From Jacunavirus JC01 (Duplodnaviria; Heunggongvirae; Uroviricota; Caudoviricetes; Casjensviridae), in the IMG/VR virus record IMGVR_UViG_2974716774_000001, positions 1 through 61,736 of that record: a stretch of DNA of 61,736 nucleotides; one strand, written 5' to 3'. The position numbers and the translations under genes were made by a program. Positions 4,121 through 32,670 of this stretch are shown piece after piece. Position 1 is the stretch's first letter, and each line of letters begins with the position of its first letter. The notes under the pieces are model-generated. The model searched no databases, had not been told where the DNA came from, and worked only from the letters and a program-made list of their open reading frames with translations.

Positions 4121-5461
4121 ATGCCCGCCAGATCCTTTCTTCTCCGCCTCATGGATGAATTTGGAAACGGCGGGCATTCTATTTTTGCGCCGTCCGGTTC
4201 GGCGATGTGGCTTTACTGTAGCGGAAGCCTTATCGCGAACCTGCTGGAAGATGACGACGGCTCGTACGAGGCTGCCGAAGGAACGGTGGCGCACGAGCTG
4301 GGAGAGCAGTGGCTGAAGTCTGGCGTTAAGCCCGACCATCGGCTCGGTGAGGTCGTCAGCGTCACGGAAGGCGAAGGCAAGCCGGTTTATGAAGTGCCTA
4401 TCGACGAAGTGATGCTGGACTTCGTTGAAGAGTACGTGCTGTGGTGTGAATGGCTCGAAGGCGACCACTTCGTCGAGCAGCGAGTCTATTTTACCGAGCT
4501 GATGCCGTACGCCAATCAGGATGAGATTGAGGAAGACCCGCTGGCGGTGCCGGTGGATTTCGTACCTCAGGGCGGTACCGCCGACCACGTTTGCTGCATG
4601 ATGGGTCTGATGATTATCACGGACTTCAAATACGGCAAGGGGATCTGGGTCGACGCGGTGGGCAACACCCAGGCGATGCTGTATGCGCTGGGATTCTTTT
4701 ACAAATGGGACTGGAAATACCATTTCGAAAAGATAGTTATCCGCATCGCTCAGCCGCGCCTGCATAACTGGGGCGAGTGGGAAATAACGCGCGACGAGCT
4801 ACTGGATTTTGCCGAGTTCGTCCGCGAGCGCGCTGCGAAGGCGTGGCAGATTAACGCGCCGCGCCGGGTGAGTGCCAAAGGCTGTCAGTGGTGCAAAGCG
4901 AAAGACAGTTGCGTCGCGAACGCCGTGGCGCTGGAAAACCTCGTCTACCGCGATTTTGATTTGCTCGCGGAAGAACTGACGGAGCACCATATGTCGATGA
5001 TGAAAGAGAAGCTGCGCGAAGAGTACAAGATGCACCTCGCCAAAGTGGCCGTGCTGGACGAGGCGGACATGGTGCGCATTCTGGAATTTCGTCGGCCCGT
5101 TGAGCAGTGGTTTAAAGCCATCAACGCAAAACTGGAGGCCGCGGCTAACGCTGGCCACACCATTCCCGGCAAGAAGCTGGTGGATGGAAAATCAAATCGC
5201 GTTTTCCGTAACCAGAAAGCGGCGATTGATCATCTGCTGTTCCTCGGCCTTGAGATGGAGGATATCGTCACCGAAGAGGTTATCTCTCCGGCTCAGGCAG
5301 AGGAAAAGTTAAGGAAGGTGGCAAAGCTGGACAGGAAGAGCATCGACGTTGCGCTTCGCAACTACGTGTTCAAGCCTCCCGGAAAACCCACACTTGTCAA
5401 TGACGACGACCCAAGAGTCGCCCTGGGAGACCACGACGAAGGTGCCTGGGACGATGAGTAA
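4121..5461 (+). CDS. DUF2800-like PD-(D/E)XK nuclease (Cas4/RecB-like fold with C-terminal Cys cluster)
   Basis: 446-aa ORF; N-terminal HSIFAPSGSAMWLYCSGS pattern and C-terminal CQWCKAKDSC cluster; typical partner of DUF2815 and PolA in phage replication modules. Confidence 0.6.
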   Translation: MPARSFLLRLMDEFGNGGHSIFAPSGSAMWLYCSGSLIANLLEDDDGSYEAAEGTVAHELGEQWLKSGVKPDHRLGEVVSVTEGEGKPVYEVPIDEVMLDFVEEYVLWCEWLEGDHFVEQRVYFTELMPYANQDEIEEDPLAVPVDFVPQGGTADHVCCMMGLMIITDFKYGKGIWVDAVGNTQAMLYALGFFYKWDWKYHFEKIVIRIAQPRLHNWGEWEITRDELLDFAEFVRERAAKAWQINAPRRVSAKGCQWCKAKDSCVANAVALENLVYRDFDLLAEELTEHHMSMMKEKLREEYKMHLAKVAVLDEADMVRILEFRRPVEQWFKAINAKLEAAANAGHTIPGKKLVDGKSNRVFRNQKAAIDHLLFLGLEMEDIVTEEVISPAQAEEKLRKVAKLDRKSIDVALRNYVFKPPGKPTLVNDDDPRVALGDHDEGAWDDE

Positions 5462-5503
5462 CTCCGTAACTCCGTAACTCCGTAACTCCGTAACTCCGTA
5501 ACC
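5459..5503. repeat. Octanucleotide microsatellite (TAACTCCG) x5 plus partial unit
   Basis: Five perfect tandem copies of TAACTCCG at 5459-5498 plus TAACC; first unit contains the stop codon of the upstream gene. Confidence 0.9.
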
Positions 5504-5510
5504 CGAAAGG

Positions 5511-6155
5511 ATGGCCAAAATGGCTGAGAAACAAAAACTGGTAGTGGCTAAGCGTATGCAGGGCGGTGTCGTTTACACGAACGGCATGATTCGTCTGGAT
5601 GAAGTTATTCTGAGCTATCCGCACCTCGATGAGATGTGGGCAGGCGAAACCGGCGATAAACCGGCGTACAGTGCTGAGTTCCTTGCGCCGAAAGAGACGC
5701 ATCGGGAAATCATCAAAGAGGCGCTCGATATCTGCCGCAAGCTGGCGTCAGAAAAGAAACTTAACATCGCTGGCGACAAGATGTTCGTGAAAGACGGCGA
5801 TAAGTGGTTCGAGCACAAGCCGGAGTGCGCAGGCCGCTTTAAGTTTACTGCCCGCGAACAGACGCACCCTACCGTTCGTCGTGCGGACGGCAGTAAGATG
5901 CACCCTAAGGATGACAAGGCAGAAATCAAAGAGATGTTCTACGGCGGCTGCATTGTATCCGCTCTTATCAACCCCTGGGTGCAGAACAACTCCTACGGCA
6001 AACGTATCAACGCCAACCTGAAAGCTGTGCGCTTCGTGCGTGACGGTGAGCCGTTTGGTGAAGGTCGTGTCGACGACGATGAGGCATGGGATGATGACGT
6101 AGGCGGCGGTGACGACTGGGATTCCGGCGACGCTGGCAGCGATGATGATTTTTAA
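5511..6155 (+). CDS. DUF2815-like single-stranded DNA-binding protein
   Basis: 214-aa ORF with RBS AAAGGA; acidic C-terminus ...DWDSGDAGSDDDF; conserved position between DUF2800 nuclease and PolA. Confidence 0.55.
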   Translation: MAKMAEKQKLVVAKRMQGGVVYTNGMIRLDEVILSYPHLDEMWAGETGDKPAYSAEFLAPKETHREIIKEALDICRKLASEKKLNIAGDKMFVKDGDKWFEHKPECAGRFKFTAREQTHPTVRRADGSKMHPKDDKAEIKEMFYGGCIVSALINPWVQNNSYGKRINANLKAVRFVRDGEPFGEGRVDDDEAWDDDVGGGDDWDSGDAGSDDDF

Positions 6156-14637: not shown

Positions 14638-15994
14638 AATGGCAACGCAGGCTTTCAAACAGGCGCTGGCCCGTATGCAGCTTCAGCCCATGATGATTGA
14701 GCCGAGCGCAGTTCCGCAAATCGCCGCGTACGCTCAGGCCATGATGGCGGGTGGCGAGCTGCCGGAGGACATGACCGAAGAGCTGCTCAACATGAAGTTT
14801 GACGAGCTGTGCCAGACCTACGGCTACAGCAGCTCAACCCGTGGTAAAAACTTCGCGTTTGCCGACGGCACCGCGATCATTCCGGTGCATGGCTCGCTGA
14901 TTAACCGCTACGGCGGGTATTATTACGGCGACGTCACCGGGTATAACTTCATCCGTCGGCAGCGCGCTGAAGCGATGGCTGACCCGGACGTGGAGCGAAT
15001 TATCTATGACGTTAACAGTAACGGCGGCGAAGCTGCAGGATGCTTTGAACTGTCGGATGAATCGTTTGAAATGCGAGGACAAAAACCGACGCTGGCCGTG
15101 GTCGACTCCAACTGCTATTCGGCGGCGTACGCATTTGCGAGCAGCGCGGATAAAATTTCCGTGACGCCTTCGGGCGGAGCGGGTAGTATCGGCGTCATCT
15201 CGATGCACACGGACATCTCAAAGCTCCTGTCGGATTATGGTGTTAAGATTACACTTATCACCGCCGGGGAGCATAAGGCTGATGGCAACCCGTTTGAGCA
15301 GCTGTCACCGGAAGTGAAGGCGAACATTCAGGCGAGCGTAGACGCAACCCGCGATAAGTTCGTCGCACTGGTGGCGCGAAATCGTGGGATAGACGAGAAG
15401 GCAGTACGTGACACGGAAGCGCGCTGCTTTAACGCCAGTGATGCGCTGGCGCTGAATCTAATTGACGCGGTAGAGACGCCGACACAGGCCATCTCCGCGT
15501 TTATTAACGGGCCATCCGGCTCAACCACTGAGGACGATTCAATGACCAAAGAACAAACCACCAAGCCGGATGGCGCTAATGCGCAGGCACCAGACCCGGC
15601 AAAAATGGAACGCGAACGCATCGCGGGCATTATGAACTGCGAAGCGGCAAAGGGTAAAAGCACTCTCGCTTCTCACCTGGCTTTCAGCACCACGATGAGC
15701 GTGGATGAGGCCAGCGCGATTCTGTCCGCTGCCGCGCCTGAAGCTTCAGCAGCTGCACCGGCAGCGCCAGCTGCACCGGCAGCGCCATCCGCTCCGACTG
15801 CTGCAGCTCCGGGAGCACAGGCAAACGTTCCGGTTGTACCGGCCGCACCGGCTGCACAGACCAACTTCTTCGCTCAGGCCATGAACGCGTCACAGCATCC
15901 GCAAGTCGGCGCGGATGCTCCGGCTGACGGCAAAGGCGAAGAAGTGGACGAGCTGATGGCCAGCTTCACCCTGGCCACTGGCGAAAAGTTTTAA
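14630..15994 (+). CDS. Head maturation protease / scaffold (lambda gpC-like, S49 peptidase family)
   Basis: About 454 aa; ClpP/S49-like core (IIPVHGSLI...YDVNSNGGEA...); Ala/Pro-rich C-terminal region; start overlaps the portal stop. Confidence 0.65.
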   Translation: MSKMATQAFKQALARMQLQPMMIEPSAVPQIAAYAQAMMAGGELPEDMTEELLNMKFDELCQTYGYSSSTRGKNFAFADGTAIIPVHGSLINRYGGYYYGDVTGYNFIRRQRAEAMADPDVERIIYDVNSNGGEAAGCFELSDESFEMRGQKPTLAVVDSNCYSAAYAFASSADKISVTPSGGAGSIGVISMHTDISKLLSDYGVKITLITAGEHKADGNPFEQLSPEVKANIQASVDATRDKFVALVARNRGIDEKAVRDTEARCFNASDALALNLIDAVETPTQAISAFINGPSGSTTEDDSMTKEQTTKPDGANAQAPDPAKMERERIAGIMNCEAAKGKSTLASHLAFSTTMSVDEASAILSAAAPEASAAAPAAPAAPAAPSAPTAAAPGAQANVPVVPAAPAAQTNFFAQAMNASQHPQVGADAPADGKGEEVDELMASFTLATGEKF

Positions 15995-16009: not shown

Positions 16010-16405
16010 ATGCTTATGACTCTGATGGCATCTCTGCCAAACCTGCTCGCAGGTAATTTTGACCTGGGCTCCTGGGAGCCTACCCAGATTCATTCTGGTG
16101 AAGCGGATATCGTGACCGACGGCGAACCTGTCGGCGTGGCGTTCGCGAAATATCAGGTTATCGCTCGTGCTAACGCAGGCGCTAACGCTGGTAAACTCGT
16201 ACCGTGGGATCCGGCGGGCAGTGACGGCGCAGAACTGGCGATCGGCATTGCTAACGAAGCTGGCGTTCCGGGCACTTACGCTCCGTACTACTGCGGTGGG
16301 GTTTTCAACCCTGACGCGATTGTGTGGCCTGCGAGTGTCACCTCCGTTGCGGCCCGCAAAGCAGCATTTGCGCGCACCAACATCCAGATCACCACGCTGT
16401 ACTAA
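16010..16405 (+). CDS. Head decoration protein (lambda gpD-like)
   Basis: 131-aa ORF immediately upstream of the major capsid gene; similar in size and composition to gpD. Confidence 0.55.
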   Translation: MLMTLMASLPNLLAGNFDLGSWEPTQIHSGEADIVTDGEPVGVAFAKYQVIARANAGANAGKLVPWDPAGSDGAELAIGIANEAGVPGTYAPYYCGGVFNPDAIVWPASVTSVAARKAAFARTNIQITTLY

Positions 16406-16416
16406 GGAGACACAGA

Positions 16417-17478
16417 ATGGCTGGACTTTATGATACTTACCGCCTCCTCGCGACGCAGCGTAAGTTTAAACAACTCCCGACGTTCTTCCTGAACTGGTTT
16501 ACCTCTCAGGTTAACTTTCCGGAAGACAAAATTGCCTTCGACAAAGTGTCCACTGACCTGACCCGCATCGCGCCGTTCGTCGCGCCGACTGCGCAGGGTA
16601 AAGTGATCCGCGAAGAAGGCCACACCATGACGGCGTTTAAACCGGCGTACGTTAAGCCGAAACACGTCATCGATCCTAACATGATTATCCCGCGCCAACC
16701 GGGCGAAGCGCTGGCCACCGGCTCGCTGACCATCGATCAGCGTCGTCAGGCGGTCATCGCTTTCCTCCTGCGTAAGCATCGTGCCATGCACGAGAATACC
16801 TGGGAGTGGATGGCGGCGCAGGCGCTGCTGTATGGCTACGTCGACGTCGAAGGTGAGAACTACCCGAAAACCCGCGTGGACTTCGGCCGCGATCCGGCGC
16901 TGACTGGTACGGTTAACTGGGCTGCCGCAGGTTACACCTTCGAGCAGGCGATGGAAGACCTGTACATGATGCGCCGCCTGGCCAACGACAAGTCTGTCAG
17001 CGCAGCTGTGACCGTTGACCACGTTTTCGGTGGCGACGCATGGGCGCAGTTCGCGAAGATCGGCAAGGAAGCGCTGTTCGGCCGCAACGGCCTGATGGAC
17101 ACCACCGTCGGCGGCTCTGAAACGCGCATCACCCGTCTGTGGGATGGCTTCGAAGGTGTCGAATACATGGGCACCATCGCTGGCCTGAACGGCGGCGGTA
17201 AGATTAACGTCTGGGTGAACACGCAGAAATTCCGCGATGAGAAGAACGAGTCGCAGTACCTGATGCCTCAGGATTCTGTGCTCGGCGTTTCTCAGTCAGT
17301 GGACGGCGTTCGCTGCTTCGGCGCGGTACTGGACAAGGCAGCTGGCTATCAGGCTCTCGAATACTTCCCGAAAATGTGGGAGAACGAAGACCCGAGCGTC
17401 GAGTACCTGATGACCCAGGGCGCACCGCTGATGGTTCCGCGTGATCCGAACGCGACCTATCTGCTTAAAGTGCTCTAA
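16417..17478 (+). CDS. Major capsid protein (lambda gpE family)
   Basis: 353 aa from the ATG at 16417 with RBS AAGGAGA; gene order W-B-C-D-E as in lambda. Confidence 0.8.
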   Translation: MAGLYDTYRLLATQRKFKQLPTFFLNWFTSQVNFPEDKIAFDKVSTDLTRIAPFVAPTAQGKVIREEGHTMTAFKPAYVKPKHVIDPNMIIPRQPGEALATGSLTIDQRRQAVIAFLLRKHRAMHENTWEWMAAQALLYGYVDVEGENYPKTRVDFGRDPALTGTVNWAAAGYTFEQAMEDLYMMRRLANDKSVSAAVTVDHVFGGDAWAQFAKIGKEALFGRNGLMDTTVGGSETRITRLWDGFEGVEYMGTIAGLNGGGKINVWVNTQKFRDEKNESQYLMPQDSVLGVSQSVDGVRCFGAVLDKAAGYQALEYFPKMWENEDPSVEYLMTQGAPLMVPRDPNATYLLKVL

Positions 17479-17494
17479 TCGGCACTAATGAACG

Positions 17495-17514
17495 GCCCGG
17501 TTCGCCGGGCGTTT
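17495..17514 (+). terminator. Possible intrinsic terminator after the capsid gene
   Basis: Hairpin GCCCGG-TTCG-CCGGGC followed by a weak T-rich tract GTTTAAAACTTTT. Confidence 0.35.
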
Positions 17515-17537
17515 AAAACTTTTCAGGAGAGAAGGCC

Positions 17538-17942
17538 ATGCCTCAACGTAAAGTAGTCCAGACTGTAGTCCTGCTCCGCGATGGCGAGCGCATTGTGCCG
17601 CCGGTCGGCAAGCCGTTCAACTTCACCGCGGAAGAGCTGAAGCGTATCGAAGAAGTGAATCCGGACGCAGTGGCGAAGATTGTCGACCCGGGCACCGATG
17701 AAGGTAAACTGGTGACGCTGACCCAAGCTGAGATTGATCAGCAGAAGCAGCAGGCGATCGATGATGCCATTGCTAAATTCAAAAAAGAGCAGGGTATCAA
17801 AGATGATGCTGAAAACACCGATGGCGGCGCTGACAAAAACGCTGCTGGCACCACTGCCAGCAAAACGCAGCAGTCCGGCAAAACGCAGCAGTCCGGCAAA
17901 AACGACAAGTCAGCTGCTGATGCAGCGGGCGATGACATCTAA
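17538..17942 (+). CDS. Hypothetical head-associated protein (position of lambda FI)
   Basis: 134-aa ORF with RBS AGGAGAGAAGG; contains an in-frame 18-bp tandem duplication (KTQQSG KTQQSG). Confidence 0.5.
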   Translation: MPQRKVVQTVVLLRDGERIVPPVGKPFNFTAEELKRIEEVNPDAVAKIVDPGTDEGKLVTLTQAEIDQQKQQAIDDAIAKFKKEQGIKDDAENTDGGADKNAAGTTASKTQQSGKTQQSGKNDKSAADAAGDDI

Positions 17943-17944
17943 AA

Positions 17945-18304
17945 ATGTCAAGAATTGCTGAGGTGAAAGCCAAAGCGCGGAGGGCCGTACATTCGGCCTT
18001 CCGTCTTGACGCGACCTATCAGGATGCGTCTCTCGATGCCGCCGTACCTGTCACGGTTCGGTGGCATAACCGTATCGTGATCCAGGGAGATTACGACTCC
18101 AGCGGTTATGCGAACATTATCGACGGCATCGAAAGAATCATCTTCAACCGCGAAGAGCTGGACGCGCTGGGCATCGACCCGCGCAGTGGAGGCGTACTGG
18201 TCATCACTGAGCCCGGCTTTGACAACGCAGTGTTGTATCTCGACGCCCGCGAGCCTATGGTCGGGCCGATAGAAGAGAAATGGTGGGTTAAGCGGAGTTC
18301 CTGA
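17945..18304 (+). CDS. Head-tail connector protein (gpFII-like, putative)
   Basis: 119-aa ORF; C-terminal ...EEKWWVKR resembles the FII ...ENFWVDR pattern; position after the capsid genes. Confidence 0.4.
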   Translation: MSRIAEVKAKARRAVHSAFRLDATYQDASLDAAVPVTVRWHNRIVIQGDYDSSGYANIIDGIERIIFNREELDALGIDPRSGGVLVITEPGFDNAVLYLDAREPMVGPIEEKWWVKRSS

Positions 18305-19442: not shown

Positions 19443-20585
19443 ATGCCTAACTATCAACCGAATTATGTGGTCGGCCGCGGTAGCCTGTATTTCAACAAGT
19501 TTAAGAAAAACTCGAATACCCCGGAAACCGGCGAACTGTATTTCGGCAACACGCCGGAGTTCACCATTACCTCTGACTCAGAAACGCTTGACCACTACTC
19601 TTCGGAGCAGGGTATGCGTAACCTCGATGCGCGCGTGATGCTGGAATACACCCCGGGTGGCAGCTTCACCTGTGATGAAATCAACGCGGATAACCTGGCG
19701 CTGCATTTCCTCGGTGAAAACACCAATATCACCCAGCTGCAGATGACAGACCGCAAAGAGATCATCCCGGTACTGAAGCGTGCTCGCTACTATCAGCTGG
19801 GCATTGATGACGTCACCCCGAGCGGCGTGCGTAACATCAACAACCTGCAGATCGTGGTGGCCAGCGTCGATTCGTCCATCTCTCTGGGCGCAGGCGACGT
19901 GACCAGCATCCCCGGCGCTACCGTGCTTCCGGCGGACAACTACGAAGTGGATCTGGCCAACGGCCGCATCTACATCGAGCCGGACGCCTCGGCTGTCGGC
20001 GCGGAAGGTATGCAGGCGGCGGTGCAGTACGACGTTGACCCGCAGGTGCGAAATATGGTCATCGGCAAAGCGGACATGATTTATGGCTCGCTGCGCTTCA
20101 TCTCCGACAACCCGGTCGGCGGGAACAAGGATTACTTCTTCCCGAAAGTGGCGCTGACGCCGGATGGCGATTATGCTCTCAAAGGTGACGACTGGCAGGT
20201 GATGAGCTTCACCTTCAGCGCGATGAAGCTGAACAGCCGGACGGCGTACATGTACATCGACGTGCGCAGTGGCACCGAGTCTGCGACTGAAGGTACCACC
20301 CGTACCATCACCGCTACCCCGGCGGCCACCAGCTCTACGGTGGGCACTGCAGTCAACGTGACGATTACGGTTCGCGATGGCAGCAACAACCTGGTGCAGA
20401 ACGAAGCCGTTACCCTGACCGCTAACAGCGGCTCAACGGTGACACCGGCCAGCGGCAGCACCAACGCCTCCGGCCAGCTGGTTGTGCAGCTGAACCGCGC
20501 TACGGCGGGCACGGGTACGGTGACGGCTACGCTTGACAGCGGCAAGTCAGTGACCTCGGCTCAGGTGACTTTCGCCGCGGCTTAA
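19443..20585 (+). CDS. Major tail protein with C-terminal Ig-like (Big_2-type) domain
   Basis: 380-aa ORF with RBS GGAGGG; C-terminal about 90 aa is Thr/Ser/Val-rich beta-strand-like (TITVRDGSNNLVQNEAVTLTANSG...) typical of Ig-like decorations; followed by a strong terminator. Confidence 0.7.
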   Translation: MPNYQPNYVVGRGSLYFNKFKKNSNTPETGELYFGNTPEFTITSDSETLDHYSSEQGMRNLDARVMLEYTPGGSFTCDEINADNLALHFLGENTNITQLQMTDRKEIIPVLKRARYYQLGIDDVTPSGVRNINNLQIVVASVDSSISLGAGDVTSIPGATVLPADNYEVDLANGRIYIEPDASAVGAEGMQAAVQYDVDPQVRNMVIGKADMIYGSLRFISDNPVGGNKDYFFPKVALTPDGDYALKGDDWQVMSFTFSAMKLNSRTAYMYIDVRSGTESATEGTTRTITATPAATSSTVGTAVNVTITVRDGSNNLVQNEAVTLTANSGSTVTPASGSTNASGQLVVQLNRATAGTGTVTATLDSGKSVTSAQVTFAAA

Positions 20586-24300: not shown

Positions 24301-25883
24301 CTAAAGCCAAAATGCTGCAGACGGATCTCAGCGCGGCGATGGGCTTCCAGTTCACCGAAGACCCGGGCGGCGGGATCAGCAAGCGTGACCGTGAGGTGCA
24401 GGCGCTGACCAAAGAGTTTGAAAAACTGCAGAAGTCCGCCGACAAAGCGAAGAAGTCGGCCAAAGAAGCACTGATGCGTAAAAACCTGCCGGGCCGCCTG
24501 GCGCTGGTCGACGAAGAGTTCGCACCGCAGCTCGCCAGGGCGAAAGCGCTCGGCGGCGATGAAGGGGCCAAGCTGACCAAACAGCTGCAGGGCATCATCG
24601 CTATCCGTAAGCAGGCCGAGACCGACGAGTACAACGCGTCACAGCGTAGTTCGTCCGGCATCGACAAGCGAGCACGCGCGTTGGAGAACCTGACGCAGAA
24701 ATACAAAGAGCTGAAAGACTCTATCCAGCTCAAAGAGGTGCAGCAGGATCCGACGTCTTCGCTGGCTGACCGCACCGCGGCTGCTGTGCAGAAAGCTAAC
24801 ACCGAGATGGATAAATATATCCGTCAGGCTAATAAGCTCGGTGGCGCGGAAGGCAAAGCACTCTCCGACCAGTTTACTGCCCTGAAGACGGTTAACGAGC
24901 AGTACATCACCCAGAAGATGCAGCTGGAGGAAGTGGAGCGCCTGGAGAACAAGGTCAACAATCTGCTGGCCATCCGTAAGTCGCGGATTGAGGAAATCAA
25001 CGCCAAACGTGAAGCGGGCGTTATCAACGAAGACCAGCAGGTCGCAGGCGTCAATCAGGTCAATCAGGAAACGCAGGGGCCGCTTAATGCCGCTCTGGGC
25101 CAGCTGCAAAGCGCGGGGTCACAGGCGCAAAGCATCATGGGGCCGGAGGCATGGGCGCAGCTCCAGGCGAACATCGCTGCGGCAAAAGCCAGTATGCTTG
25201 ACCTGACAGGTACTTTCACCACGATGGACTCTACCGTCGTTAAAGGTGTTCTCGGCGGCTTTGAAGCGGCGATGGACTCTATCTATGACAGCATGGTACA
25301 GCTCATCCGCGGCACGCAGTCTCTCAGTGACGCGTTTTCGAACCTGGGCGTGGCAGTGGCCAAGTTCTTCGCCGACTTCCTGCGTCAAATCGCAATGGCC
25401 ATCCTTCAGCAGATGGTGCTCAATGCGCTTGCGGGAATGGGAGGCGGTATCGGCGCGGCGGCGCAGGCAGCGGGCGGCGTGGCCAAAGGTGCGGCCAAGC
25501 ACAACGGTGGTATCATCGGCAGCTCGACGACCGGAGGTATGCAGACACGTCAGATGCAGACGTCGTGGTTTGCCAACGCTCCGCGCTTCCACACCGGCGG
25601 GCTGCCCGGCCTGAAGTCAGACGAGGTACCAGCCATTCTGCAGAAAGGCGAGCAGGTGCTGTCCAAAGATGACCCGAACAACATCCTGAACCAGCAGCGG
25701 TCTACGTCAGGCGGTGCTGCGTCGCCGCAGATGAATCGCTTCGTGCTGGTGGACGACCGCACCAAGATCCCCGAGGCCATGAACAGCCAGGAAGGGGAGC
25801 AGGTATTCGTGCAGTTCCTTCAGCGCAACGCCGCGACAGTCCGGCAGATTGCGTCACGTAAAACGAGCGGGAGAAACGGATAA
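21375..25883 (+). CDS. Tail tape measure protein
   Basis: 1502-aa ORF, N-terminal coiled-coil-like Ala/Gln/Arg-rich region, central hydrophobic Gly/Ala-rich region; located after the chaperone pair. Confidence 0.85.
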   Translation: MANNSSRDVELNIRARDYSQKTLKQVTDAISDMAKAQDAQRLAAERGEVTAKELEASYRKLESAGQALLKLNSLVEVYKRQTAALEAQQVKLEQTVEKQKELQAAYDGAEKVTKRQEAALARANRAVEKATQGLSDQQARVSRAAAELDKYGISTNELARSQQTIVANVGRVNAVLERQDNIIQRVPEAVRKYNQAWDEAIATNNRLDTARLEKYNRAWDEAIAINNRMDAAAKLTQQRLEEQAYAIDKVITGLRRQADEAIAASRGYQTLGRVVAATNLSTGGRLATDLQAIVTPAQAARSTLGGLEKQVDSLSREIEAGGKNIEGAAQKLKDLQAAQQAAIGMARLIDQFRAQTTAVRTARAEFQAARADVMQLAERMRAAQADTEGLGREMQAAQQRLNAATQALRTTGAAARQTQAALRSAGVDTRTLGTESDRLRTTAQRTTTAVDGLAGAVRRSGEAARDGAKAFSFFTDSGRTTLSATQRLKGEILALTTTYIGFQGAINLAGGAVDAFKTRQQALIKISQVVGKDQNRLNAEWEYMEGLANRLGVKIEDVAQGYTSFAVAAKATGLSLQQTKYVFESITKTGRVFHLSADDMQGVFRAMQQMLSKGQVYAEELTGQLGERLPAAVALFAKGMDMTTQELLKAMQNGEISSQAVINFARANAKAIDAEIETASKGVDAMEARAQNAMFNFKLAMADSGFIEAYVRMLERLTEFLNSPDGAEAAKKFGDAFSKAADAIIWCVDNIDILINALTVFAGLKAVQYVAGLVQGLRKLAPLFAQIGKIGDGILSFFSKFAARLATGTGAVKGLGIALGGLVRAIPYVGWALLAYDIGAIFYEQSQTFAKAVDEVIRDFKNLGNQLIALAETPVAALRDLAYAIVRPITTLFSTSITAIANWIADVVSLIPGVGEDLAKWTRDVAKELTKQNRDMFQNVSGIWDDVNDKWAKMNDDITKKYSQTMSEVVRQTLAAKAKMLQTDLSAAMGFQFTEDPGGGISKRDREVQALTKEFEKLQKSADKAKKSAKEALMRKNLPGRLALVDEEFAPQLARAKALGGDEGAKLTKQLQGIIAIRKQAETDEYNASQRSSSGIDKRARALENLTQKYKELKDSIQLKEVQQDPTSSLADRTAAAVQKANTEMDKYIRQANKLGGAEGKALSDQFTALKTVNEQYITQKMQLEEVERLENKVNNLLAIRKSRIEEINAKREAGVINEDQQVAGVNQVNQETQGPLNAALGQLQSAGSQAQSIMGPEAWAQLQANIAAAKASMLDLTGTFTTMDSTVVKGVLGGFEAAMDSIYDSMVQLIRGTQSLSDAFSNLGVAVAKFFADFLRQIAMAILQQMVLNALAGMGGGIGAAAQAAGGVAKGAAKHNGGIIGSSTTGGMQTRQMQTSWFANAPRFHTGGLPGLKSDEVPAILQKGEQVLSKDDPNNILNQQRSTSGGAASPQMNRFVLVDDRTKIPEAMNSQEGEQVFVQFLQRNAATVRQIASRKTSGRNG

Positions 25884-31800: not shown

Positions 31801-32670
31801 AGGCTTTACGGCGACAACGACGTGGCCAACGCCGTCATCAGGCCACACAGCTTCGCCGAGGCTATCCGCCCTGAGGATATGCCGTTTAAGCAGCTGCAGA
31901 TGCAGTACCGGCCAATCCGGCCATACCCGCCGGGCATGTTGCTGTTTAACGGCCAGCACTGGTTCAAGCGCATCAACGCACTGGCAGACGAGAACTACGA
32001 GAAGCCGCAGGGCAAGCCGGTCATCGTGACCTGGGCGCACCGTAACCGCATCTGGCAGGACGACGAAGCGTACGACCACTACGCCACGGGCATCCCGCCG
32101 GAGCCGGGTGTGGAGTACCGTATCTGGATTGGGTACCGGTACATCGAGAATCGCCAGGAAGTGAAGGTCACTCTCGATACGCTGGTGACGTCGGATGCCG
32201 GTATCACGTTCACCAAAGAGATGGTAGAGCGCTGGGGCGAGAAAGCTGGCCGCTTCCTACAGTCTCCCGGCTTTGTCGGCGTAGAGGTGGCAGTCAACGC
32301 AGTGCGGGATGGCGTGTTTAACTGGCAGGGCTACGGCGCGCAGATGCTGCTGCCGTCTTACCCGCTGAGCCCGGGCGAGAAGCCTGGCGGCGGCACGGTT
32401 CCGCCAGACCCGGAATACCCGCAGCCCGGCGACCCGACGCCTAACCCGAACGACCCGGATCCAAACCCGAACCCGGGCGACGGCAATGGCGACACCGACC
32501 CGCTGCCAGACCCGGGCAACCCAGACCCGAATCCGGATCCGGAAGTGCCGGACACTGACCCACCGGCGCCAGAACCGGAGCCGGAGCCAGACCCGGAGAA
32601 CGTATTCGGCTGGTCGAACAACTGGGATCACGGCTGGGCATCGAAACTGCCTGACCAGAACGGAGAATAA
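28852..32670 (+). CDS. Tail tip central fibre / host specificity protein (lambda gpJ-like)
   Basis: 1272-aa ORF; internal region ELAIRIAQRDL...RRLWRLQPGDVF resembles the gpJ pattern; C-terminal Pro/Asp/Asn-rich low-complexity linker. Confidence 0.65.
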   Translation: MGKASKVTVGYKYYMGLHMSICRGPVDELCEITVGDRQAWQGSVTGNTQFSINKKNLFGGTKAEGGIDGTLDVMMGGATQTMSSKLRAMLQGDQPEFRGLMTTFFDGMVCAMSPYPKAWKFRVRRILSGWDGPVWYPQKATINLTGYYDDGSSRQIKAMNPVHIIYEALTNRAWGLGRDRSLFLDDAWRKAADDIYDEGFGLCIRWGRQDTLMSFVQTIIDHIGCAVYVDKFTGKFKIKLIRNDYDADSLPIVDMDSGLLSIDEATNASTYNLINEVIVNAHNPVTNKDFQARQHNLALIQTQGALNSDTRDYPGIPTPELAIRIAQRDLKAASTNVRRFTVTADRRLWRLQPGDVFKLRDPQSRGIETVVVRVGKVEETNQTDGSIKITAVQDVFGVELNTFADVQPPSHVEPTFDPQLARRLVYEYTYAELARLLPTGEFEAIKPAEGFVHAHAEKPTAMSAGADLAVRPEGQANFVVNGTTDFTPLAELQNQIGYLDTQLQYYREIDFDDDEEVYVGMSLLIGDGQKNEIVRLDALDRTTKTMTIARGCWDTIPQRHFGGALIWAIEDNGGTDATKYLSGETVDVKILPFTLRGGSYPIDEAPIDSVLMRHRFFRPYAPGLVEVETIARGSKAPWYVSFDLRADVGSNEVPDFALITWAHRDRPVQQDKLIDHMQTSIGPEPGTTYRLRVFNATGALVRTETGITGTQFAYTYQMAADDTQVELEATESTFGTIFLDAQRDGVDSWMYYTLTFTVHKKPPQNGEVALLSMQTTADDTDMTSNPDNDLSGAQVSSMQMNATQDDSDIATGDDNTGGQVALMSENATQTTKILPTIDFYLYEAPYLTLAREGRDLTHSQMLGFVARPSDRATDGYDFCDRLQGEEAWHNNGAAPWTPWGVLKGFMAQLTNEFEVDLTSDTDGVPIGSVQQGDVLLIDNELMVVQSVDGKRFTVGRGAVDTVPAIHYAKVVVWLFDRAHAAADRLYGDNDVANAVIRPHSFAEAIRPEDMPFKQLQMQYRPIRPYPPGMLLFNGQHWFKRINALADENYEKPQGKPVIVTWAHRNRIWQDDEAYDHYATGIPPEPGVEYRIWIGYRYIENRQEVKVTLDTLVTSDAGITFTKEMVERWGEKAGRFLQSPGFVGVEVAVNAVRDGVFNWQGYGAQMLLPSYPLSPGEKPGGGTVPPDPEYPQPGDPTPNPNDPDPNPNPGDGNGDTDPLPDPGNPDPNPDPEVPDTDPPAPEPEPEPDPENVFGWSNNWDHGWASKLPDQNGE

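Follow-up and report, generated by a model that had tools for sequence, protein, structure and literature searches.

The DNA analysed here (the window, 61,736 nt) comes from a Chi-like siphophage of the Casjensviridae type, and its head module contains a small gene of the DUF7443 family in which a perfect 18-bp tandem duplication lies within the coding sequence (Table 1). As had been claimed in a preliminary description of this DNA, this gene follows the capsid gene, and the same order, with the DUF7443 gene directly after Phage_cap_E, was found in every longer context examined (the window, L007, L008, PIN1, and SLP-22), while a further locus (L009) was too short to show the gene upstream of its DUF7443 homologue.

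Table 1. Features of the head module and of the tandem array, with positions in the window.
Feature	Position	Strand	Basis
S49 protease/scaffold gene	to 15994
Lambda-gpD-like decoration protein gene	16010..16405
Phage_cap_E major capsid protein gene	16429..17478
DUF7443 gene hosting the repeat (405 nt, 134-aa protein; AGGAG ribosome-binding site upstream of ATG)	17538..17942	+	ORF, Pfam, PHROG
Inverted repeat CTGCTGGCA-CCAC-TGCCAGCAG, an 8-9 bp hairpin abutting the first copy	17842..17863	.	inverted-repeat and fold scan
Whole array: GCAAAACGCAGCAGTCCG twice plus a third partial GCAAAA (2.33 copies, 100% identity)	17860..17901	+	Tandem Repeats Finder, offset-18 run, pattern search
Copy 1 of the 18-bp unit; segment missing from the sister phage in the alignment	17860..17877	+	DNA alignment with L001-L003
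Copy 2 of the 18-bp unit; pairs with the sister's sole copy GCAAAAAGCAGCAGTCCG, 1 difference	17878..17895	+	DNA alignment
GCAAAA microhomology closing the array; with the GCAAAA at the unit start, a direct-repeat pair 18 nt apart	17896..17901	+	sequence reading, sister sequence
119-aa gene after the DUF7443 gene	17945..18304
207-aa and 170-aa genes	after the 119-aa gene
380-aa gene in the slot of the Ig-like major tail protein of PIN1 and L007 relatives	19443..20585

The array has been characterized by several scans. Tandem Repeats Finder reported a periodic stretch of period 18 with 2.3 copies, 100% matches and a score of 84, and our own scan of the window found 24 consecutive matches at offset 18 across its 42 nt, which stand in the context ...ACTGCCA GCAAAACGCAGCAGTCCG GCAAAACGCAGCAGTCCG GCAAAA ACGACAAG... 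with the two copies identical at 18/18 positions. Given the base composition, about 3e-10 runs of at least 24 matches would be expected at one offset in the window; the 24-mer, even with 3 mismatches allowed, was absent from 100 of 100 dinucleotide-preserving shuffles, and no other copy of the 18-mer was found elsewhere in the 61.7-kb window with up to 3 mismatches. The preliminary description had reported CAAAACGCAGCAGTCCGG twice in tandem as an in-frame duplication (KTQQSG KTQQSG), and both statements agree with what was found: the two copies in this register lie at 17861-17878 and 17879-17896, position 17862 is in codon phase 0, and KTQQSG-KTQQSG forms residues 109-120 of the open reading frame (17862..17897). 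Since the unit length is a multiple of three, a frameshift on/off switch is impossible, and a phase-variable (contingency) repeat was rejected because the 18-bp unit is internal to the coding sequence and both known alleles encode a full-length protein.

The host protein combines a conserved domain with a low-complexity tail. It matched Pfam DUF7443 (PF24227) over residues 1-61 with 85.2 bits against a cut-off of 27, which places it in this family, and it also matched phrog_7559; both PHROG 7559 and DUF7443 are of unknown function. All 85 aligned homologues likewise matched DUF7443, and the duplication falls beyond the part of the protein covered by the Pfam domain. From these 85 homologues an AlphaFold2 model was made, which predicted a small beta/alpha domain at residues 1-48 (pLDDT 82-89) and a helix at residues 63-84 (pLDDT about 76-82), followed by an unstructured region from about residue 88 to 134, where the pLDDT block means are 43-51 from residue 91 onward and the segments at residues 91-99 and 101-115 fall below 50. 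The repeat is thus located in the predicted disordered tail, DDAENTDGGADKNAAGTTASKTQQSGKTQQSGKNDKSAADAAGDDI, in which Ala is the sole hydrophobic residue until the terminal Ile. The preliminary description had placed the duplication in a Lys/Gln-rich C-terminal region, of which the location held up but the composition is only loosely right: the last 46 residues are rich in Ala, Asp, Gly, Lys and Thr, the repeat alone supplies all four of their Gln residues, and it is the helix at residues 63-84 that is rich in Gln and Lys.

An exhaustive HMMER search provided a broader picture of the family, comprising 164 representatives of 65-168 aa (median 102). Conservation across them was limited to the first ~50 residues, and the tails were rich in Ala, Lys, Asp, Glu, Gly and Thr. 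The C-termini carried a conserved motif of acidic residues and Ile or Leu (DDDI 16 times, DDDL 11 times, EDEL and others), and the 134-aa protein, which ends in ...GDDI, is acidic-hydrophobic at its C-terminus in the same way. Exact tandem peptide duplications have also arisen independently in other members, including KTDKS twice in P0012, AKAEADAK twice in P0033, AAAKAAADE twice in P0058, and EAQAKADA twice in P0084, as well as KAAAE twice, and near-exact hexapeptide repeats were present in P0013 (KTDKTS/KTDKTA) and P0020 (AETDAK/TETDAK). In addition, the tails of 16 close relatives gave a lag-6 autocorrelation of z = 4.3 with the duplicate in the window excluded, a value that is indicative only, as these sequences are not independent. 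The tail probably acts as a flexible spacer between the conserved N-terminal domain and the acidic C-terminal motif. In the picture we offer, this spacer tolerates changes in length and evolves through a series of small duplications, of which the event in the window is the newest.

Other features around the repeat were also considered. The 59-nt gap between the capsid stop codon and the DUF7443 ATG contains a GC-rich stem-loop, GGCCCGG-TTC-GCCGGGC followed by GTTTAAAACTTTT (17496..17530), which is kept in the sister contigs described below; it was not called by the simple terminator scan and may represent, behind the highly expressed capsid gene, a leaky terminator or a hairpin that stabilises mRNA. 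The open reading frames overlapping the DUF7443 gene (17734..17961 on the plus strand; 17738..17938, 17797..17973 and 17523..17726 on the minus strand) had no family matches. Rfam gave no match either window-wide or locally, no promoter-like site was found, and the terminator-like hits, including one on the minus strand, were within chance expectation. The possibility that the 18-bp unit is itself a DNA or RNA element was rejected, considering that it has no other copies in the genome, no Rfam match, and an ordinary local fold.

The most informative comparison was offered by a close relative of the phage. The preliminary description had proposed comparison across isolates as the way to check the duplication, and such a comparison revealed a sister phage, 98.99% identical in DNA, that has exactly one copy of the unit. 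A protein search that covered 5.8 billion protein clusters returned P0001, a protein of 128 aa, that is 134 minus 6, with 98% identity in the aligned columns. Its coding sequence is present on three short contigs from Logan (SRR33991138, SRR33991139, and SRR33991144; loci L001-L003). These three contigs are identical and come from runs with adjacent accession numbers, and the sister should be read as effectively one population. The alignment of the window with the sister contained 12 substitutions in 1184 aligned nt and a single 18-bp gap, which falls exactly at the repeat; the indel register is arbitrary within a repeat, so the placement of the gap at the first copy is an alignment choice. 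The sister reads ...CTGCCA GCAAAAAGCAGCAGTCCG GCAAAAACGAC..., with one copy that encodes KKQQSG. Both copies in the window have C (17866 and 17884) where the single copy of the sister has A, corresponding to Thr116 versus Lys at the second of these positions, and this shared C implies that the substitution either predates the duplication or arose in the sister. The one-copy state of the sister is genuine and not an assembly collapse, because no 31-mer recurs within a 42-nt array of period 18, so that a 31-mer de Bruijn assembly cannot collapse it, and because the sister copy has its own SNP.

The remaining differences between the two phages are few. Only two substitutions were found in the DUF7443 gene, both non-synonymous (P22Q and T116K), whereas all nine in the two downstream genes were synonymous. 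The non-synonymous pair might hint at relaxed or diversifying selection, and six of the nine synonymous changes are grouped within 70 nt (18046..18115), a cluster that might mark a small recombination patch; with so few changes, neither pattern can be interpreted. The window's exact protein had no 100% identical match among the 5.8 billion clusters, and the P0001 cluster has one member sequence. Exact-flank scans of IMG/VR, JGI metagenomes and GTDB genomes revealed no further close relative, and neither a peptide-pattern scan of IMG/VR nor blastn, megablast and tblastn searches against GenBank phages detected an intermediate outgroup. The nearest GenBank phage was Salmonella phage BAU.Micro_SLP-22 (Jacunavirus), at about 75% nucleotide identity.

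Slipped-strand misalignment between short direct repeats is a classical route of mutation, and the sequence at this locus is what such an event would be expected to leave. In the one-copy allele, GCAAAA (GCAAAAA, 7 nt, in the sister) occurs twice, 18 nt apart, and flanks the unit. The ancestral single-copy state would have been GCAAAA-CGCAGCAGTCCG-GCAAAA-ACGAC, in which the nascent strand, having just copied the second GCAAAA, would re-pair with the first one; the intervening 18 nt would then be copied a second time, inserting KTQQSG into the tail. The product predicted in this manner, GCAAAACGCAGCAGTCCG twice plus GCAAAA, is the sequence of the window base for base. Slippage as the mechanism is thus what we infer from the sequence. 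When the single unit of the sister was compared ungapped with the next 18 nt, 13/18 positions matched (KKQQSG / KNDKSA), which suggests that an older round of the same duplication process preceded the present one. The hairpin that abuts the first copy could have served as a pause site promoting slippage; the local fold at 17842..17863 is not statistically unusual (z = -1.0 versus shuffles).

Taken together, the repeat is a real and ordinary length polymorphism of the replication-slippage type, an instance of a well-known kind of event. We consider it very probable that it represents a recent in-frame 18-bp (6-codon) duplication that arose by slipped-strand mispairing during phage replication in a disordered tail, where it is likely to be neutral. 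The suggestion in the preliminary description that slippage or duplication recently took place in a low-complexity tail has therefore gained support from the one-copy sister, the identity of the copies, the GCAAAA microhomology, the predicted disorder, and the length variation of the family. As the tail length is free to vary in the family, the addition of six residues most likely has little or no selective effect.

The direction of the change deserves a separate discussion. It is possible in principle, although unlikely, that the two-copy state is older in this lineage and that the sister lost one copy by a slippage deletion, given that perfect tandem repeats lose copies as easily as they gain them, according to general knowledge of misalignment mutagenesis, and that the direction is not directly readable from two alleles when there is no close outgroup. 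Such a loss, however, would still require an earlier duplication and hence one extra event, and more distant relatives are without a second KTQQSG-like copy. Moreover, the tail from the GIKD motif to the C-terminus has 43 aa in the sister, as in another relative (P0002), and 49 aa in the window, which is the longest in the subgroup. A gain in the window lineage rather than a loss in the sister is therefore favoured by parsimony, though not proven, because an older gain with a subsequent loss would take one event more. The identity of the copies at all 18 positions indicates that the duplication is young under either direction.

A second alternative, to which we assign a low probability, is that the extra KTQQSG is functional and selected, perhaps tuning the length or charge of the tail or doubling a short linear motif and thereby affecting head assembly or DNA packaging. 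The conserved acidic-hydrophobic motif at the end of the tail implies that the tail probably tethers something, and the length of a tether can matter; in addition, both allele differences in this gene are non-synonymous while the neighbour genes differ only synonymously. On the other hand, KTQQSG is not conserved in any relative, the total length of family members ranges over 65-168 aa without a conserved tail sequence, which argues for weak constraint, and a unit whose length is divisible by three offers no frameshift switch. Least of all do we expect the duplication to be an assembly or sequencing artefact of the window, even though the two-copy allele has been seen nowhere else in the protein collection or the exact-flank scans, since assemblers are not prone to exact in-frame 18-bp duplications bounded by microhomology, the array has exactly the structure that slippage would make, the window contains a second perfect in-frame duplication of 18 bp, located in a different low-complexity linker (15750..15787), and many similar duplications are present in members of the family.

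This second duplication, CAGCTGCACCGGCAGCGC in 2.1 copies, belongs to the S49 protease/scaffold gene of the same head module, where it is situated in an Ala/Pro-rich linker (...AAPAAPAAPAAPSAP...), and it is the same kind of event as that in the DUF7443 gene. Imperfect in-frame repeats were also observed in other parts of the window: at 32430..32472 and 32563..32598 (within 32430..32598) the periods are 21 and 18/6 nt, and at 24430..24469 the period is 21 nt. A repeat of another type was found at 5458..5502, where an 8-bp unit, GTAACTCC, is repeated 5.6 times with 100% match and takes up the space that separates the stop codon of an exonuclease-like 446-aa gene (4121..5461) from a 214-aa gene starting at 5511. 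In the nearest relative, the gene corresponding to the 214-aa one carries the annotation of a Gp2.5-like ssDNA-binding protein, and the 214-aa product has an SSB-like acidic tail (...SDDDF). Because the same spacer in SLP-22 (L019 460..505) contains a degenerate series of GTAA-containing 8-14-nt units, this motif may have a function, such as that of a translational operator or an SSB binding array, rather than being a random microsatellite.

The annotation of the small DUF7443 gene is inconsistent across Casjensviridae records. In Klebsiella phage PIN2 (PQ803401) the homologue is unannotated (L005 3501..3770; the PIN1 counterpart is L004 3501..3770), and the 'Neck2' CDS of PIN2 begins 114 nt further upstream than that of PIN1, running into the unannotated DUF7443 gene, whereas one KPN phage record names the homologue 'tail length tape measure protein'. 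Virion proteomics of PIN1 and PIN2 (PMC12264135) was considered as evidence for the homologue and set aside, because the locus tags of PIN2 identify the 'hypothetical protein' after the major head protein as the downstream Neck2-like gene. The YSD1 capsid paper (PMC7385642) models YSD1_16, YSD1_17 and YSD1_22 only and does not mention the next gene, and a literature search for YSD1_18 or DUF7443 found no papers.

By itself, the duplication matters little, yet it is a clean, dated example of length change in the disordered tails of phage structural-module proteins, in which one slippage step between 6-nt microhomologies has been captured between genomes about 1% apart. The perfect 42-nt array is likely to be a hotspot where the copy number changes again, and it could thus be used to mark strains within this phage lineage; the case also cautions against over-reading length differences in the DUF7443 protein. 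A side result that is possibly more useful is that DUF7443, a family missed in at least one published genome and endowed with a conserved acidic C-terminal motif, is located in the slot occupied by gpFI in phage lambda. This position and the motif provide a testable hypothesis for a role in head assembly or DNA packaging.

In lambda, gpFI is a DNA packaging chaperone (Pfam Packaging_FI, PF14000) that binds the major capsid protein of procapsids and stimulates terminase-dependent packaging, and it is absent from the virion. The head module of the window is collinear with the lambda order C/Nu3-D-E-FI-FII-Z-U-V, which puts the DUF7443 gene in the position of FI, flanked by the major capsid gene and the FII-type head-closure gene. 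The two proteins are also similar in size (132 aa for gpFI and 134 aa for the DUF7443 protein), and in both of them a small globular domain is accompanied by a helical part and by a long low-complexity segment of acidic character. Reportedly, the Bacillus subtilis prophage protein YqbF (PDB 2hjq) is a structural relative of gpFI; its scores against the DUF7443 protein were not significant and the two have no sequence similarity. An hhalign comparison of the DUF7443 protein with gpFI gave a probability of 0.09%, neither the window protein nor any of the 85 homologues matched PF14000, and the fold similarity to gpFI was weak only. Foldseek searches of the DUF7443 model against the PDB returned nothing significant, and the matches of a BFVD structure search were other DUF7443 or unnamed proteins only. 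Membership in the gpFI family was therefore rejected, as there is no sequence or profile similarity and only the position and a weak fold match are left. On gpFI, PMC4493119 cites the work of Popovic et al. 2012.

That the DUF7443 protein works like gpFI is a hypothesis that we regard as doubtful. A more specific and likewise doubtful version would view DUF7443 as the domain-swapped gpFI counterpart of the Chi-like phages (Casjensviridae), composed of an N-terminal globular domain that binds the capsid, a flexible charged tether, and a conserved acidic DDDI/L docking motif. The tether length would change by hexapeptide-sized slippage, the event in the window being the newest such step, and might thereby tune the bridging between procapsid and partner.

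Compared with known indel polymorphisms of the slippage type, the array described here has no substantive difference, and it consists of two copies only and so is not a long VNTR array. The features in common are perfect head-to-tail copies, microhomology of 6-7 nt bounding the unit, a unit that is a multiple of three, a location in a disordered segment of biased composition, and a copy number that differs between near-identical genomes.
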